Below are positions 3,564-8,432 of a stretch of 8,454 nt of DNA, piece after piece. This DNA comes from Escherichia phage If1. Each line of letters starts with the position of its first letter. The first letter of the stretch is position 1. The stretch is taken from the sequence record NC_001954.1; one strand, given 5' to 3'. Below the pieces are notes generated by a model. It did not search any database, was not told the DNA's origin, and saw nothing but the letters and a program-made list of their open reading frames with translations. A program made the translations under genes and the position numbers.

Positions 3564-4833
3564 TTTGCTTTGTGTATTGTCATTTCAGAGCTTTGCTATC
3601 CCTGTTGAACTGAATAATGCGCCAGTAAGGGAGTTTGTTTCATGGTATTCAAAAACAACCGGAAAGCCTGTGATTATTTCACCAGACGTAAAAGGGGAAA
3701 TTACGGTTTACTCAGCGGATGTCACCAAAGATGAACTGCCTCAGTTTTTTACTTCGGTTCTCCGGGCGAACGGTTTTGACCTCAGTCCGGGTAATCCTGC
3801 TGTGGTTCAAAAATTTAACCGTAATACGTATGAATATTCCGATTCTTTCTCAGAGCCGGTTCCGGCATCTTCTTATGATGGTGATGTTCCTCCTCCAACT
3901 GGAGACTTTTTCACTAAACCTGAGATACGTGCCAATTTGATTACTCAGACGTATCCGGTCAATAACGTCAGAGCAAAGGATCTCGCACCTGTTATTGATA
4001 TATTCCTGAAGGGGGAAAATATTGCTGGTACTAAAGTTTATCCTTTGATGGGGCGAATATTCTTGCTTGTAACGGCATCAGCATCACAACACAAAGAACT
4101 TGCAGCATTTTTTCCTTCTGTTGATGTGCCAAGAACTCAGGTTCTTGTTGAATCAGTCATTTTTGAAACAACGGCTTCCGATGGTTTTGATTTTTCATTT
4201 GCTGCGGGGGATCCTTCCGGCAGTCCGGTTGCGGGAGGGATCAATACTGACCGTCTCACGTCTGTTTTATCCAGCACTGGCGGTTCCTTTGGTATTTTTA
4301 ACGGGAACATTCTGGGGCTTAGCCTGAAAGCGCTTGAAACATCGAGTAAATCAACGCTTTTATCAATGCCACGCATTCTGACGATGTCAGGTCAACCAGG
4401 AACATTTACAGCAGGGCAAAATGTTCCTTTTGTGACGGGGCGGGTTACGGGAGAAGCTGCAAATGTTAACAATCCATTCCAGACGATCGAACGTCATGAT
4501 GTGGGGATCTCACTGAAGGTTGTTCCGGTCGTGACACCCGGAGGATTGTTAATCATGGATGTTTCGACAAATGCGGATAGTATTTCTGATTCGCAAACGG
4601 CTTCTGACATCATCACAAATACACGCTCAATTTCGACAACCGTTCAGCTAAAATCAGGCCAGACAGTTCTGCTTGGCGGGATGGTAGATAACAGGGAAAG
4701 CGACAGTGATTCATCTGTACCGTGGGTATCAAAAATTCCCTTAATTGGTGCGCTTTTCACGTCCAAAAGCTCAAATGCCAACAAGCGCACGCTGTACATT
4801 CTCATTCGCGCCCGCGTCGTTAACCTGCTTTAA
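3544..4833 (+). CDS. IV: Gene IV secretin (virion export channel)
   Basis: 429 aa from ATG 3544 (MKKLLASLLCVLSFQSFA signal peptide), with AAGGA at 3530-3534 upstream. The ORF track opens at 3535 (432 aa). Strong collinearity with M13 pIV, including the secretin C-domain (VPFVTGRVTGEAANVNNPFQTIERHDVGISLKV...SKIPLIGALF). Confidence 0.95.
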   Translation: MKKLLASLLCVLSFQSFAIPVELNNAPVREFVSWYSKTTGKPVIISPDVKGEITVYSADVTKDELPQFFTSVLRANGFDLSPGNPAVVQKFNRNTYEYSDSFSEPVPASSYDGDVPPPTGDFFTKPEIRANLITQTYPVNNVRAKDLAPVIDIFLKGENIAGTKVYPLMGRIFLLVTASASQHKELAAFFPSVDVPRTQVLVESVIFETTASDGFDFSFAAGDPSGSPVAGGINTDRLTSVLSSTGGSFGIFNGNILGLSLKALETSSKSTLLSMPRILTMSGQPGTFTAGQNVPFVTGRVTGEAANVNNPFQTIERHDVGISLKVVPVVTPGGLLIMDVSTNADSISDSQTASDIITNTRSISTTVQLKSGQTVLLGGMVDNRESDSDSSVPWVSKIPLIGALFTSKSSNANKRTLYILIRARVVNLL

Positions 4834-4947: not shown

Positions 4948-5060
4948 ATACAGTAAGACTCACATCATCATAAATACAAAGCGAGACGGGTATCGTAAGA
5001 GTTGCCATGTAGCATTTCCTTTGTGCTGTTGAATTTGTGGGTGCATTTGCACGCGAAGCG

Positions 5061-5085
5061 GTTCGGGGTTCTGTGACACCCGAAC
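5061..5085 (+). other. Stem-loop (7-bp stem, 11-nt loop) in the intergenic region
   Basis: GTTCGGG(5061-5067)...CCCGAAC(5079-5085), read directly from the sequence. Confidence 0.35.
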
Positions 5086-5088
5086 TTT

Positions 5089-5112
5089 ACCGTGGTTTCC
5101 CACGGTATTTTT
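5089..5112 (+). terminator. Plus-strand rho-independent terminator candidate
   Basis: ACCGTGG(5089-5095)-TTTC-CCACGGT(5100-5106) followed by A then T5 (5108-5112). On the minus strand the hairpin is not followed by a T-run, so it is directional (+). It lies immediately before the 3' end of the minus-strand ORF at 5119. Confidence 0.55.
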
Positions 5113-5118
5113 CTAATC

Positions 5119-5310
5119 TTACTCGCTGGACTTGGTTGTGTGAATCAGATCCTTTTCTGTATCTTTTGCATAATTATCAATCAGATGATTAACGATATCA
5201 GTCCAAGTGATCGCACGTCCAGCGGTATGACTGGCATCGATCGCCAGCCGTTCGAGTTTTAGCTTTCGTTCAGCCACGATAGCCATAGTTGTTCGTTTTG
5301 GAGTTGCCAT
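5119..5310 (-). CDS. Small ribbon-helix-helix-like DNA-binding protein (putative regulator; function unknown)
   Basis: 63 aa from ATG (reverse complement of 5308-5310): MATPKRTTMAIVAERKLKLERLAIDASHTAGRAITWTDIVNHLIDNYAKDTEKDLIHTTKSSE. Short N-terminal beta-strand-like segment (RTTMAIV) followed by two predicted helices, as in the CopG/Arc/MetJ pattern. GGAAG lies 5 nt upstream of the ATG. The ORF track starts at an upstream TTG (5322). The only clearly antisense gene relative to the phage operons. Confidence 0.45.
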   Translation of the reverse strand: MATPKRTTMAIVAERKLKLERLAIDASHTAGRAITWTDIVNHLIDNYAKDTEKDLIHTTKSSE

Positions 5311-5329
5311 CTTAACTTCCAAAGGGTAC

Positions 5330-5379
5330 TCCCGCCGACATAAGGCGGGAGGGGAATTTGGACGGGCTTGAAAAGCCCG
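5330..5379 (+). repeat. Left-end subterminal hairpins of the IS (candidate TnpA recognition structures)
   Basis: Hairpin 1: TCCCGCC(5330-5336)-GACATAA-GGCGGGA(5344-5350). Hairpin 2: CGGGCTT(5363-5369)-GAA-AAGCCCG(5373-5379). They lie just downstream of the tnpA stop (5388-5390 on the minus strand) and are separated by a G-rich motif GGGAGGGGAA. Confidence 0.5.
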
Positions 5380-5387
5380 AAGGGTGA

Positions 5388-5768
5388 TCAGCCACGCTGA
5401 TGTTGAATGTATTGCCTAACAACTTCCAGCGGCGCACCTCCGCAGGAGCCAGCAAAGTATGACCTAGACCAGAGCACGGCTTTTCCGTATGCCCCCCGCA
5501 AATCAAGAAATTCGTTTCGCAGACGGCGGGATGTCACTGCTTTCAGTGAGTTAACCAGTACCGAAAGCTGCACTGTTGGTGGGTATTCGATCAGCATGTG
5601 GACATCATCGTACGTCTCCGTTACTTTCTTTAAGTTCCTCGCCCCAAAATCACGGCAGCACTTCTGCCTGCATACTGATGAAATGGCTGCACAGTGTAAC
5701 TCTCCCAGTATCTTTCGACGGTATTTTGTTACAAAGACGAAGATGAACATGCAAAAGGAAGGCAGCAT
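5388..5768 (-). CDS. tnpA: IS200/IS605-family Y1 (HuH) transposase TnpA
   Basis: 126 aa from ATG (reverse complement of 5766-5768); the track ORF opens at TTG 5831. Core motifs present: ...FVTKYRRK..., ...DDVHMLIEYPP... (HuH-region) and ...LWSRSYFAGSCGGAPLEVVRQYIQHQ (catalytic Tyr region). The first His of the HuH motif reads as Asp (D-V-H). Confidence 0.85.
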   Translation of the reverse strand: MLPSFCMFIFVFVTKYRRKILGELHCAAISSVCRQKCCRDFGARNLKKVTETYDDVHMLIEYPPTVQLSVLVNSLKAVTSRRLRNEFLDLRGAYGKAVLWSRSYFAGSCGGAPLEVVRQYIQHQRG

Positions 5769-5852
5769 GTCTTGAACGATTGATTTTATATTTTTGCATT
5801 GAGGTTGGCCGTAAAAGCAGTAATATTGCAAGAAAATCTAGCTACACACTGA

Positions 5853-6143
5853 ATGATGATGCTAATCCTGAAAGCCTACAAATTCAGACTGGAACCAACG
5901 CCTGAACAGTCGCAGCGTTTGCGGCAGTTATGCGGTTGCGCCCGTTTTGTCTGGAATTTAGGTCTTGCGGAGACAAAGCGCATACTTGACTCAGGCGAAA
6001 AGTTACCTTCGGCTTTCGAGTTGAACCGGAGTGATTACAGTGTGGAAAAAAATGCCGGAATACATCTTCTTACAGGATGCCTATACCGACAATCTGCAAC
6101 AAAAGCTGAAAGACCTGCATACCGCATGGAAACGTTGTTTTGA
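5853..6143 (+). CDS. tnpB: tnpB N-terminal fragment (frame 0), out of frame with the main tnpB body
   Basis: Starts ATGATGATG. MMMLILKAYKFRLEPTPEQSQRLRQLCGCARFVWNLGLAE matches the canonical TnpB/OrfB N-terminal signature (KAYKFRLxPTxEQ...GCARFVWN). Only about the first 60 aa look genuine; the rest of the frame runs to a stop at 6141-6143. Confidence 0.7.
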   Translation: MMMLILKAYKFRLEPTPEQSQRLRQLCGCARFVWNLGLAETKRILDSGEKLPSAFELNRSDYSVEKNAGIHLLTGCLYRQSATKAERPAYRMETLF

Positions 6144-7086
6144 TAAAAAGCTCGCAGCTAAGGCTCCGGTATGGAAACGAAAAAATGAGGGCAGAGACTC
6201 AATCCGTTTTGTGAACTTTGAGAAATATTGCTGCCTTGAAAATCGCAGAGTGAAGCTACCGTCAGGTCTTGGGTGGGTAAAATTCCGGCAATCTCAACGT
6301 GTGAACGGTAAAATCAAAAATGCGACAATCAGTCAGTTAGCGGGACAGTGGTATATCTCGTTTCAGGTTGAAATTGAAACGGCAGAACCAAATCACACAA
6401 GCACAACGATAGTCGGTCTGGATGCTGGCGTGGCTAAACTCGCCACGCTGTCAGATGGCACAGTCTTTGAACCTGTAAACAGTTTTCAGAAAAACCAGAA
6501 GAAGCTGGCGAGACTTCAGCGACAGTTAAGCCGCAAGGTCAAATTCAGCAACAACTGGCAGAAGCAGAAACGCAAAATACAGTGTCTGCATTCCCGTATC
6601 GCAAATATCCGCAGAGACTACCTTCATAAAGTCACAACGACCGTCAGCAAAAACCACGCAATGATAGTCATTGAGGATTTGAAGGTCAGCAACATGTCAA
6701 AGTCAGCAGCGGGTACGGTCAGCCAGCCGGGGCGCAATGTCCGGGCAAAATCAGGTTTAAACCGTTCGATACTGGATCAGGGCTGGTATGAAATGCGCCG
6801 CCAGCTTGAGTACAAACAGCTCTGGCGTGGAGGTCAGGTGCTTGCTGTTCCGCCAGCGTACACAAGCCAGCGTTGCGCGTGCTGTGGTCATACAGCGAAA
6901 GAAAACCGCCTGTCACAAAGTCAATTCAGATGCCAGGTATGTGGATATACAGCGAACGCCGATGTAAATGGCGCTCGTAACATTTTAGCGGCGGGGCACG
7001 CCGTACTTGCCTGTGGAGGGACGATGCAGTCAGACCGCCCGTTGAAGCAGGAACCAGACGCTGAGCAATCAGCCGTCACCCACTAA
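6031..7086 (+). CDS. tnpB: tnpB main body: RuvC-like, zinc-finger RNA-guided endonuclease (IS605 OrfB / OMEGA TnpB)
   Basis: 351 aa in frame +1 relative to the N-terminal fragment. RuvC-I (IVGLDAGV), RuvC-II (MIVIEDLKV), zinc finger (CACCGH...CQVCGY) and RuvC-III ([10 protein letters not shown]) all present. Frame opens just after TGA at 6022-6024, with first start-like codon GTG at 6031. Combined with the N-terminal fragment the protein would be about 410 aa. Confidence 0.85.
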
Positions 7087-7091
7087 TGGGA

Positions 7092-7132
7092 ATCCCCCTC
7101 CTGAGTCACGAAGTGCGAAGGTGGGGGAGGAT
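7092..7132 (+). repeat. Right-end imperfect palindrome / G-rich motif of the IS (candidate RE structure and omega-RNA scaffold 3' region)
   Basis: ATCCCCCTCC (7092-7101) ... GGTGGGGGAGGAT (7120-7132), 6-13 nt after the tnpB stop. It can form an imperfect stem with bulges. It resembles the left-end motif GGCGGGAGGGGAA at 5344-5356. Confidence 0.4.
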
Positions 7133-7140
7133 GTCAATCC

Positions 7141-7315
7141 ACACCTCAGTAGTTTTCTGCTGGCATAAAGCTAAACACTTATGCTCTCCAGTCGTATTCT
7201 GCCGTCATTATAGTTAAACACTTATGCGCTCATATCATTATGCTTGTATACATGCGTAATGCGTGATAGATTTTTGTCATTTCGTAACTGCATACATGTA
7301 TAGGGTGAGTGTTCA
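7141..7315 (+). promoter_or_regulatory. Gene II-proximal intergenic region: candidate plus-strand origin, gene II promoter and operator
   Basis: AT-rich. 13-bp direct repeat TAAACACTTATGC at 7172-7184 and 7215-7227. Palindromes TGTATACA (7245-7252) and ATACATGTAT (7292-7301). Possible -35 TTGTCA (7274-7279). SD-like GGGTGAG before the ATG at 7316. Same position as the plus-strand origin and gene II promoter in Ff phages. Confidence 0.45.
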
Positions 7316-7537
7316 ATGTTTTTTGACTGGCTGACTATTGAACAGGATTTTGGCTTTCAGCTACCGATTTTGAGTGATGTTGCCTATCAGCGCATCCACC
7401 TCGAAAGCGGGGAAGCGTCAGCTCTGAGTCAGCCAACTTTTCAGCACAAAGGATCTTTTTGTGATGGTTGTTTCGATCTCTATCCGAGGCTCATTGCTGA
7501 AAGTCTCTGGAAATCCTTCCCGGTGGGGGCGTCTTGA
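7316..7537 (+). CDS. II: Gene II replication initiator, N-terminal segment (frame 2), ahead of an apparent frameshift
   Basis: MFFDWLTIEQDFGFQLPILSDVAYQRIHLESGEASALSQPTFQHKGSF... Start and N-terminal pattern resemble M13 pII (MIDMLVLRLPF...). The genuine part probably ends at F48 (7457-7459); the track ORF continues out of frame to 7537. Confidence 0.7.
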   Translation: MFFDWLTIEQDFGFQLPILSDVAYQRIHLESGEASALSQPTFQHKGSFCDGCFDLYPRLIAESLWKSFPVGAS

Positions 7538-8432
7538 TAATTTATTTGGCCTTCCAACTTTGGATTCCTGTGTATCGGTTTTCAATACGATCCTTGCTGA
7601 AATAGGTTTACCTCAGTTTACGAAATGTAAGAGGCTTATGCCCGGCCAGGCAAAAGAGAATGAGAAAGCACCTCTTGTTGCTGACGGTGCAATTATTAAA
7701 GAAGTACATATCACCTCGAACAGGGCGGCAGGTAAGGGGAATGAAGATGACTATATTTCAGGTTTATCTACGCAACCCTACAGGAACAGCGTTCCACGGC
7801 TACACTCCAATGGAAAATCCGTTGACTGGCTGTCTAAAAAAGGCAATGTAAACCTCATATATCCAACGGTTTACAATAAAGCTCATGAAATGGAACTCCA
7901 TTCTTTGACAAAGATAAAGAATCGTTTTTCCGAACAATCTCGGGAATACAATTACCTACTCGATATTATATCTTTCTGCAAAGAGAATGGGGTCGTAAGG
8001 TTTGAGCAAAAGCTGAAATCCAGATTTTTGCAAAAGAATGCGCTCAATTACTGGGGGCTTTCTGATTATTCCATTTTAAATAAGTTACATTCTGATTTTC
8101 TTGAACTTGATAAAAAGTTATCGGTGAATGCTATGGACTTTGAAACTATCAGTGATCATCTTGTAAGTAGTGGGGTTGTTGAAACCACCCGTGCAGCAAA
8201 TACTACCGCAATGTATGCAATACAGTGGTTTCACGGTCATGTATTTGACTTCAACAAAAAACAGGTTCAGACACATCGGGCGCGGTTACGAAAAATTGGT
8301 ATCGACATTGCGCAGAAATGCAATGTTTCTAAATTCTCTCCTGTGATTGTGAAACAAACACGGGAAATTAAGGTGCAGGAGTGCGTTGCACCATCATGGT
8401 ATGTACGTCCGTCACATTTACGCGTTGCATAG
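7461..8432 (+). CDS. II: Gene II replication initiator (rolling-circle nickase), main body (frame 0)
   Basis: 323 aa. SISIRGSLLKVSGNPSRWG aligns with M13 pII CVEIKASPAKVLQGHNVFG, and RFEQKLKSRFLQKNAL with M13 RFEARIKTRYLKSF. Stop TAG at 8430-8432. Frame opens after TGA at 7425-7427. Confidence 0.9.
   Translation: MMVVSISIRGSLLKVSGNPSRWGRLDNLFGLPTLDSCVSVFNTILAEIGLPQFTKCKRLMPGQAKENEKAPLVADGAIIKEVHITSNRAAGKGNEDDYISGLSTQPYRNSVPRLHSNGKSVDWLSKKGNVNLIYPTVYNKAHEMELHSLTKIKNRFSEQSREYNYLLDIISFCKENGVVRFEQKLKSRFLQKNALNYWGLSDYSILNKLHSDFLELDKKLSVNAMDFETISDHLVSSGVVETTRAANTTAMYAIQWFHGHVFDFNKKQVQTHRARLRKIGIDIAQKCNVSKFSPVIVKQTREIKVQECVAPSWYVRPSHLRVA
8133..8432 (+). CDS. X: Gene X product (in-frame internal start within gene II)
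   Basis: In-frame ATG at 8133 (MDFETISDHL...) preceded by GGTGA at 8123-8127. 99 aa. Same relative position and size as M13 pX (111 aa). Confidence 0.5.
   Translation: MDFETISDHLVSSGVVETTRAANTTAMYAIQWFHGHVFDFNKKQVQTHRARLRKIGIDIAQKCNVSKFSPVIVKQTREIKVQECVAPSWYVRPSHLRVA

Follow-up and report, generated by a model that had tools for sequence, protein, structure and literature searches.

The transposase TnpA of IS608, an insertion sequence (IS) of Helicobacter pylori, binds subterminal imperfect hairpins and inserts the element into single-stranded DNA (ssDNA) without duplicating the target; the top strand is cut at two places, on the left 3' of TTAC and 19 nt upstream of the hairpin, and on the right after TCAA and 10 nt past the hairpin (PMC3201880, PMC5934647). 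The cleavage sites are recognized by guide tetranucleotides situated just 5' of each hairpin, AAAG on the left (GL) and GAAT on the right (GR) (PMC3201880, PMC5934647), and TnpA is active on the top strand only, in ssDNA (PMC3201880). The second protein, TnpB, uses an RNA of about 150 nt that derives from the 3' end of tnpB and the right end (RE) of the element, the final ~16 nt of which are a copy of the flank and serve as the guide (Karvelis 2021, PMC8612924). Its transposon-associated motif (TAM) is the same as the TnpA target (PMC8612924). A complete IS200/IS605 element resides in the genome record of Escherichia phage If1 (NC_001954.1; 8,454 nt, read 5' to 3' on one strand and referred to as the window), where it occupies positions 5311–7137 on the plus strand, between gene IV, which ends at 4833, and gene II, which starts at 7316. 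The window is most probably that of a filamentous Ff-like phage with one complete, autonomous IS200/IS605 element of the IS605/IS608 type that was gained by ssDNA transposition.

The presence of an OrfB_IS605 domain, and of a host-derived IS, in If1 is already known. Caprari et al. (2015) named If1 as the sole ssDNA phage with this domain, and described the protein as 99% identical to an E. coli transposase and derived from the host (PMC4632390). This is the single passing mention in the literature on If1 together with IS609, TnpB or transposase, in which no dedicated study was found, and no paper was found on the element's ends, its strand, its RNA or its relation to IncI1 plasmids. The element is a routine plasmid IS with a well-known mechanism, and its insertion is an ordinary, recent one of an element that is common on the plasmids on which the phage depends.

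The ends of the element were set by alignment to two plasmid copies, one in an IncI1 plasmid (L001) and one inside traC of an F-like plasmid (L002), and by three pairs of empty and occupied sites (F traC, the IncI spacer and the phage); the two plasmid sites were also obtained in a form without the insertion. In the aligned L001 and L002, similarity begins at ...CCATCTTAACT and stops at ...GGATGTCAA; judged from the uninterrupted plasmid sites, the element proper runs from CTTAAC, directly 3' of CCAT, to the TCAA at its end, and measures 1827 nt as recorded and 1818 nt in the plasmid copies. The original prediction had placed the element at 5325–7140, which is the right place, but its exact ends are 5311 and 7137. 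None of the three site pairs shows a duplication of the target or a loss of bases. The target and left cleavage tetranucleotide, CCAT at 5307–5310 (+), is phage DNA outside the IS and the presumed TAM of TnpB; in each of the eight independent copies examined (one in the phage, two on E. coli plasmids, one each in Klebsiella and Photorhabdus, and three in Aeromonas), CCAT immediately precedes the left end, and it occurs 20 times on the plus strand of the IS-free backbone, three times in the intergenic region (5005, 5283 and 5307).

The vacant phage site as reconstructed, GGAGTTGCCAT/TCCACACCTCAG (the slash marks the junction), found exact-pattern matches in the IMG/VR contig L005 and in the metagenome loci L127, L128 and L129, the last two of which come from one 454-kb contig. 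All four are 99.2–99.9% identical to the window on both IS flanks, and precisely lack the IS. As these IS-free relatives hold the exact vacant site, the segment is an insertion and not ancestral phage DNA, which settles in favor of the original prediction the comparison with an IS-free relative that it had proposed. The segment is also marked as foreign by its base composition, with a GC content of 0.46–0.54 and a positive AT skew in the element, whereas the phage genes have a GC content of 0.36–0.43 and a T-rich strand. A megablast search of the phage collection with the entire window returned matches to the IS and one 50-nt match only.

The ends of the element are not inverted repeats of each other; in place of terminal inverted repeats, there are subterminal imperfect hairpins. 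On the left, the guide GGTA (5325–5328) is followed by the hairpin CTCCCGCC-GACATAA-GGCGGGAG (5329–5351; DNA fold z = -4.2), and 18 nt separate the cut from the hairpin foot (19 by the IS608 count). The RE (7090–7137, +) consists of the guide GAAT (7090–7093), a folded hairpin at 7094–7127, CCCCCTCC...GGTGGGGG, which is made imperfect by a T.T mismatch, and the 10-nt tail AGGATGTCAA (AGGATG-TCAA), with the right cleavage site TCAA at 7134–7137. The left guide GGTA complements the left cleavage site (CL) CCAT position by position, in the same register as AAAG and TTAC of IS608, and the matching of guides to cleavage sites (GGTA/CCAT and GAAT/TCAA) appears from the sequence to follow the IS608 rule. 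The If1 element and IS608 share the right guide GAAT, the right cleavage site TCAA, the 10-nt right distance, the subterminal hairpins, the left spacer of 18–19 nt from the cut to the left hairpin and the lack of target duplication, but they differ in the target and left site, which is TTAC with the guide AAAG in IS608, and CCAT with GGTA in the If1 element. An exact 41-nt left-end (LE) pattern had no match in a one-genome-per-species collection. At the other end, the 18-mer GGTGGGGGAGGATGTCAA of the RE and the arm GGAAT-CCCC(T/C)TCC recur unchanged in IS200/IS605 elements (L006–L125) whose bacterial hosts are only very distantly related (Methylococcaceae, Bacillus, Pseudomonas, Actinomycetes and cyanobacteria); the hairpin loop that lies between the arm and the 18-mer spans a few to tens of nt in those elements, sometimes with nested hairpins.

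The top strand of the element (5'-CCAT/LE...RE-TCAA-3') is the plus strand of the window, and thus both the tnpB strand and the phage coding strand. Virions of the Ff type package the mRNA-sense strand, which is also the product of rolling-circle replication. As the top strand of the IS coincides with the packaged coding strand, its active strand is the one present as ssDNA, in line with what the original prediction had put forward.

The element contains a divergent gene pair, with tnpA on the minus strand and tnpB on the plus strand; this is the layout of IS605/IS606, whereas the two genes of IS608 are co-directional. The profile searches proposed in the original prediction returned both expected families. 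The tnpA gene (5388–5799, -) matches Pfam Y1_Tnp (E 1.2e-27, window 5388–5831), and the intact 134-aa TnpA of the plasmid copies matches NCBIfam transpos_IS200 (1.3e-40), so that the protein is a Y1 HUH (His-hydrophobic-His) transposase by family, albeit with a broken frame and an HUH motif that reads DVH in the window. The tnpB gene (5859–7086, +) matches the Pfam families HTH_OrfB_IS605 (1.9e-18), OrfB_IS605 (4.8e-33) and Cas12f1-like_TNB (2e-24). The intact 408-aa TnpB of the plasmid copies matches NCBIfam guided_TnpB (2.2e-108), and aligns over its full length with the ISDra2 TnpB structures 8h1j and 8exa (E about 1e-43). The RuvC motifs and the CxxC...CxxC zinc finger that had been recognized in TnpB are borne out by this comparison, in which the three acidic residues and the cysteines are kept: D188 (GLDAG, 6421–6423), E272 (VIEDL, 6673–6675) and D368 (NADVNG, 6961–6963), all on the plus strand, and the two C-terminal CxxC pairs C339/C342 and C358/C361. 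By its RuvC D/E/D residues, its C-terminal zinc finger and its similarity to characterized TnpB, the protein belongs to the TnpB/OMEGA group.

The 3' end of tnpB and the RE together encode a predicted structured guide-RNA scaffold (omega RNA, or reRNA), at 6988–7137 (+) with an uncertain 5' limit. It comprises a hairpin (6988–7004), the pairing of CCUGU (7010–7014) with GCAGG (7047–7051) around an inner helix, and the RE hairpin, and the motif CCUGUGGAG...GAAGCAGGAAC (7010–7054) is a weak match to Rfam RAGATH-18 (28.1 bits). An exact search with the RE 18-mer returned more than 120 loci in many phyla, from which several chance matches inside genes were removed by a filter; 40 filtered and de-replicated sequences of the last 200 nt were aligned. 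RNAalifold alone gave two helices only, and the RAGATH-18-like pairing was set by hand and then tested. In the 40 elements, 87.4% of the cells of the named structure are paired versus 54–63% when the 3' partners are slid, the covariation score is 0.29 versus 0.08–0.16 in the slid controls, compensatory changes occur at 12 pairs, and none of 500 shuffles matched the observed covariation or percentage of pairing. Little or no variation is seen in GGAAT, in most of the 5' arm of the hairpin or in the terminal 18-mer, with which the search was made. As the alignment was chosen through this invariant 18-mer, the RE helix is uninformative, and the evidence lies in the three upstream helices. In position and in kind, the predicted RNA corresponds to the one reported for TnpB (PMC8612924). 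The If1 element resembles ISDra2 of Deinococcus radiodurans in the full-length homology of TnpB, the D/E/D residues, the zinc finger, the predicted RNA from the tnpB 3' end and RE, and its flank-derived guide; it differs in the TAM, which is TTGAT for ISDra2 and presumably CCAT for the If1 TnpB, a nuclease by prediction.

Full-length copies of the element are found on E. coli plasmids with 99.3–99.5% identity (megablast, complete E. coli genomes). The nearest are on IncI1 plasmids, between excA/hha and trbA, where 51 plasmid records hold the element. A representative copy (NZ_CP029975, p51008369SK1_B) has the same ends, the 134-aa TnpA, the 408-aa TnpB and the CCAT target, and agrees with the phage copy at 1817 of 1818 positions; the IncI1 copies have intact frames and reside on plasmids, whereas the If1 copy has nine extra bases and resides in an ssDNA phage. 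Only 94 of 5,426 E. coli genomes have a copy that spans 80% or more of the query. The near-identity with the IncI1 copies is meaningful because so few E. coli genomes hold the element and because the phage and the plasmid are bound to meet in the same cells. Sensitivity of their pili to If1 is what defines IncI plasmids (PMC8004404), and the IS is in this way linked to the IncI1 plasmids that provide the If1 receptor.

The IncI1 copy is annotated as IS609/InsQ, and this insert is not in R64 (PMC8004404). For the If1 element, the label "IS609" is approximate, since IS609 of E. coli K-12 (insQ/yncK, NC_000913 1503161–1504908), a member of the same family with the same tail AGGATGTCAA, shares only 647 nt of tnpB at 96.3%, and has a different left end, a different RE hairpin and a tnpA pseudogene; over the full length, it is not the same element. 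The K-12 chromosome, or a cloning host derived from it, was rejected as the source of the IS, given this 647-nt match. On the IncI-gamma/K1 plasmid NZ_CP029837 (19412–22306), the hha-dqlB site is vacant and the whole IS is matched nearby in three pieces; the same element has thus been inserted at another nearby position, which suggests that it has been mobile recently on these plasmids. In the output of a prophage finder, Salmonella plasmids are credited with PHAGE_Entero_If1 NC_001954 as an intact prophage (PMC13063685). This call is most likely a false one that results from the match between the IS genes in the annotation of the If1 reference and the same IS of IncI1 plasmids; the element is probably what makes prophage finders call "If1" on such plasmids (PMC13063685).

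Several points weigh against an element that is autonomous and was gained by ssDNA transposition. The orientation of the element would fit integration into phage ssDNA, but is weak evidence, as only two orientations are possible and the prior is 50%. The RAGATH-18 match of the RNA scaffold is below the Rfam gathering score of 44.9. Of the classical IncI1 plasmids, R64 is without the element (PMC8004404), and no copy was found in ColIb-P9, a possible historical donor, over the part that was searched (45–93 kb). If the breaks in tnpA and tnpB and the DVH motif are real, the copy is dead. Finally, a junction of If1 with the IS was sought in IMG/VR and in the JGI metagenomes and was not found in either.

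From this last result it follows that the insertion may exist in the sequenced stock only, and a laboratory accident, by which the IS would have entered during propagation or during the cloning of fragments of the replicative form (RF) for sequencing and would not belong to natural If1, is a possibility to be taken seriously, though doubtful. Hopping of IS elements into phage and plasmid stocks is common, and all of the natural relatives found (L005, L127 and L128/L129) are without the IS. However, the element is absent from E. coli K-12, whose IS609 shares only 647 nt at 96%, and so cannot have come from a standard cloning host of that strain, and the public databases that were scanned are sparse for this phage. 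Moreover, an insertion that took place on an IncI1-carrying host would still be a genuine transposition into phage ssDNA, at the canonical CCAT and with precise ends.

As recorded, both genes of the divergent pair are broken, which the original prediction had overlooked while identifying the pair itself correctly. Compared with the plasmid copy L001, the IS of the window has one substitution (5606) and nine one-base insertions (5611, 5637, 5640, 5659, 5667, 5685, 5739, 5841 and 6031), and 1817 of 1818 positions match when the insertions are set aside. The first seven insertions lie in tnpA and cause repeated frame changes (tblastn), the substitution at 5606 turns the first His of HUH into Asp, and the extra G at 6031 splits tnpB after residue 57 into the open reading frames (ORFs) 5853–6143 and 6031–7086, so that no uninterrupted tnpB frame is present in the window; residues 58–408 of TnpB are encoded unchanged in 6031–7086.

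A genuinely decayed and immobile pseudo-IS, with nine real insertions, no TnpA or TnpB and the standing of inert cargo, would account for the split tnpB, for a tnpA in several frames and for the DVH motif; the loss of tnpA could even be the reason why an IS that transposes as ssDNA persists stably in a genome of ssDNA, as ready excision would be expected of an active TnpA, and its inactivation would stabilize the element. Such decay is nevertheless improbable. A single inactivating change would be enough, yet all of the differences, nine insertions and one substitution, are clustered within 425 nt (5606–6031), with the remaining ~1,400 nt identical to the plasmid copies. Natural copies vary by substitution only, with 35 substitutions and no indels between two of them, against one and nine in the window (Fisher p = 1e-8), and the nearest copies in the E. 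coli genome set (best 99.5% identity, among the matches listed) carry none of the nine insertions. Comparable indels occur in the essential genes II and IV of the same record. Gene II has an extra G at 7466, which splits it into two ORFs, and this base is absent from all of the relatives that cover the site (L005, L127 and L129), with an intact 371-aa ORF in L005 and L127. In gene IV, a -1/+1 pair at 4044/4067 relative to L127 garbles seven residues of pIV, and L128 has two indels in the same stretch; the reading of the relatives fits Secretin_N with 37.5 bits versus 33.5 bits for the record. Since natural copies vary by substitutions only, the nearest ones are without the insertions and genes II and IV show indels in the same record, the nine insertions are probably errors in an old sequence and not biology, and it is quite unlikely that the frame breaks in tnpA and tnpB are real. 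In practical terms, the If1 reference record seems to hold indel errors in genes II, IV and the IS. In the intergenic region, one base is also missing from the record at 5052 in comparison with near-identical relatives, which is probably an error of deposition as well.

With intact genes, the element as acquired by ssDNA transposition has all of the parts of a peel-and-paste cycle, namely, both hairpins, the guides GGTA and GAAT, the sites CCAT and TCAA, the TnpB core and the RNA scaffold. A circular ssDNA intermediate of the top strand would have been integrated by TnpA into the single-stranded plus strand of the phage, 3' of CCAT at 5307–5310 and with no duplication. The donor would most likely have been a co-resident replicon of an IncI1-carrying host, although the reverse transfer, from phage to plasmid, may apply instead. 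If the genes are intact, TnpA would excise the IS from progeny plus strands and restore ...GCCAT/TCCACACC.... The phage flank at 7138–7157 (+) corresponds to a guide of 16–20 nt, TCCACACCTCAGTAGT..., of which 7138–7153 is the predicted guide; this 16-mer is unique in the window. CCAT and the predicted guide are contiguous in L005, L127, L128 and L129, and are interrupted in the genome that carries the IS. The TAM CCAT together with 7138–7153 is the predicted cleavage target of TnpB, which, with an RNA bearing the 3' guide TCCACACCTCAGTAGT, would cut the vacant site beside CCAT in double-stranded RF DNA. Such a cut would favor genomes with the IS, either through retention or homing by recombination with RF copies that carry it or through the destruction of IS-free genomes, and in a mixed infection TnpB would cut IS-free competitors. 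For the phage, the IS would be a tolerated passenger that displaces the promoter and ribosome-binding site (RBS) of a small minus-strand regulator gene.

This excision-then-cut model is drawn from work on ISDra2 and on Geobacillus (PMC8612924; 10.1101/2023.03.14.532601; PMC10690162), and TnpB-mediated retention or homing in If1 is plausible given the exact match of CCAT and the predicted guide to the vacant site of the natural IS-free relatives, though its steps hold only if tnpA and tnpB are intact. The retention, homing or weapon role that the original prediction had raised is compatible with the anatomy of the element. Homing endonuclease genes of phages, such as the intron-borne or free-standing ones of T-even phages, offer a functional analogy only, as a selfish nuclease cuts the allele without it upon co-infection; in If1, the predicted target is the vacant site, and recognition is predicted to be RNA-guided and coupled to a transposase. 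It is unlikely, on present evidence, that the IS is active and that phage and IS form an RNA-guided gene drive among filamentous phages. If this were true, every cell with IncI1 pili would receive from the virion a top strand that is competent for transposition, TnpA would keep peeling the IS from progeny ssDNA, and the cut guided by TCCACACCTCAGTAGT beside CCAT would hit the excision products as well as those natural If1-like prophages and phages that are IS-free and dif-integrated; the IS would be retained, would home into competitors or destroy them, and would use the phage as a shuttle between IncI1 plasmids. In any case, If1 constitutes a natural test system, as its IS transposes as ssDNA and is placed, with the active strand as the packaged one, in a genome that is ssDNA for much of the time, and the predicted TnpB target in natural IS-free relatives makes the retention or homing model and the phage-borne spread of the IS directly testable.

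The insertion site lies at the start codon of a conserved gene. The original prediction had assumed that the region between gene IV and gene II normally contains only the packaging signal and origins; this does not hold, as a minus-strand gene for a 63-aa ribbon-helix-helix (RHH)-like regulator is present at 5119–5310 (phrog_2503, E 5.4e-27). Its homologues number 36 and come from enterobacterial genomes (Dickeya, Yersinia, Xenorhabdus, Klebsiella, Providencia and others), prophages among them, and from small contigs of inovirus size. Sequence searches of Pfam, NCBIfam and PDB gave no confident family for the regulator, with weak RHH hints of the ParG/TraY type (e.g., ParG, E 0.28). The gene probably encodes a replication or lysogeny regulator of the inovirus lineage. 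In the IS-free relatives, the regulator's ATG is preceded by GAGGTG-TGGA; the IS of the window stands exactly between this ATG (the reverse complement of 5308–5310) and the Shine-Dalgarno sequence GAGGTG (the reverse complement of 7142–7147), and the promoter/operator region of the regulator, which includes a pair of 23-nt direct repeats (7166–7188 and 7209–7231), is now 1.8 kb from the gene. Two copies of the 10-mer GAGTTGCCAT, the last bases of which are the IS target, are present in the intergenic region (4999–5008 and 5301–5310); on the minus strand, each of them reads ATGGCAACTC, with an identical start-codon context, and the IS is in the second copy only.

Upstream of gene II, there are two direct repeats of 23 nt (7166–7188 and 7209–7231), which are 87% identical and 43 nt apart, and an overlapping palindrome (7236–7261). 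The repeats and the palindrome are candidate operator or iteron sites of a divergent control region. A 46-nt two-hairpin element at 5061–5106 (GTTCGGG...CCCGAAC; ACCGTGG-TTTC-CCACGGT and a T-run) is 96% identical to that of the marine Alteromonas inovirus phiAFP1, and is probably a strongly constrained cis element, an origin and/or a terminator. phiAFP1 has the same layout, with the two-hairpin element, a minus-strand regulator, Rep and an ssDNA-binding gene. At the protein level, identity between phiAFP1 and If1 is only 53% for Rep and 35% for the "putative regulator".

The IS-free relatives contain an extra module of ~2.6 kb, with its junction at window 4930/4932 (L127, 1–1436 and 8097–9360; L005, 1–1325; L128, 984–3543). 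Its ORFs are on the minus strand, and one of them encodes a helix-turn-helix (HTH) protein (phrog_15357); a single weak match of the HicB type was also obtained. L127 has a perfect E. coli dif site at its end (9331–9358) and a hybrid dif-like site at its start (111–138), and L128 and L129 are arranged in tandem within the 454-kb contig. Judged from their sequences, the IS-free relatives look like XerCD/dif-integrated prophages. No dif-like site was found in the window, and If1 therefore appears to be a non-integrating derivative.

An adaptive insertion, in which the uncoupling of the regulator from its promoter and RBS, or read-out from the IS into gene II, would alter replication control and would have contributed to the change from a temperate inovirus that integrates at dif to If1 with its free replication, draws on the exact position of the IS between ATG and GAGGTG, on the natural relatives as dif-associated tandem prophages with a 2.6-kb module that is missing in If1, and on tnpB and the omega RNA being directed towards gene II at a distance of 178 nt, but it has little to commend it over a tolerated passenger, as the regulator belongs to a PHROG class of "unknown function", its ORF is intact and may be transcribed by read-through from tnpA, and the loss of the 2.6-kb module alone could account for the difference in lifestyle.

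Around the element, the plus strand of the window holds a full Ff-type gene set and every long phage-type ORF, in the collinear order V-VII-IX-VIII-III-VI-I-IV-intergenic region (IG)-II, as expected of Ff-like Inoviridae. The canonical Ff genes had been described as present and collinear, and family matches now support this for all but gene IX, which is assigned by position only: gene V (1–291; PHROG ssDNA-binding protein), gene VII (Inovirus_G7P_2), gene VIII (Phage_coatGP8), gene III (Phage_Coat_A), gene VI (family match), gene I (Zot), gene IV (Secretin) and gene II, the replication initiator (7316–8432; Pfam G2P_X_C and Phage_CRI), 178 nt downstream of the IS, all on the plus strand. No nick site of the Ff gpII type was found in the window, and the proposed correspondence of the insertion site with the region that carries inserts in M13 cloning vectors is a positional analogy and nothing further. 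In gene III, a 36-nt run of GGGTCAGGC-type repeats, which encodes part of the Gly/Ser linker of pIII, is missing in frame at window 1612 in comparison with the relatives, and an in-frame 6-nt indel is present at 1942–1947, which is consistent with variation in repeat number in the pIII linker.

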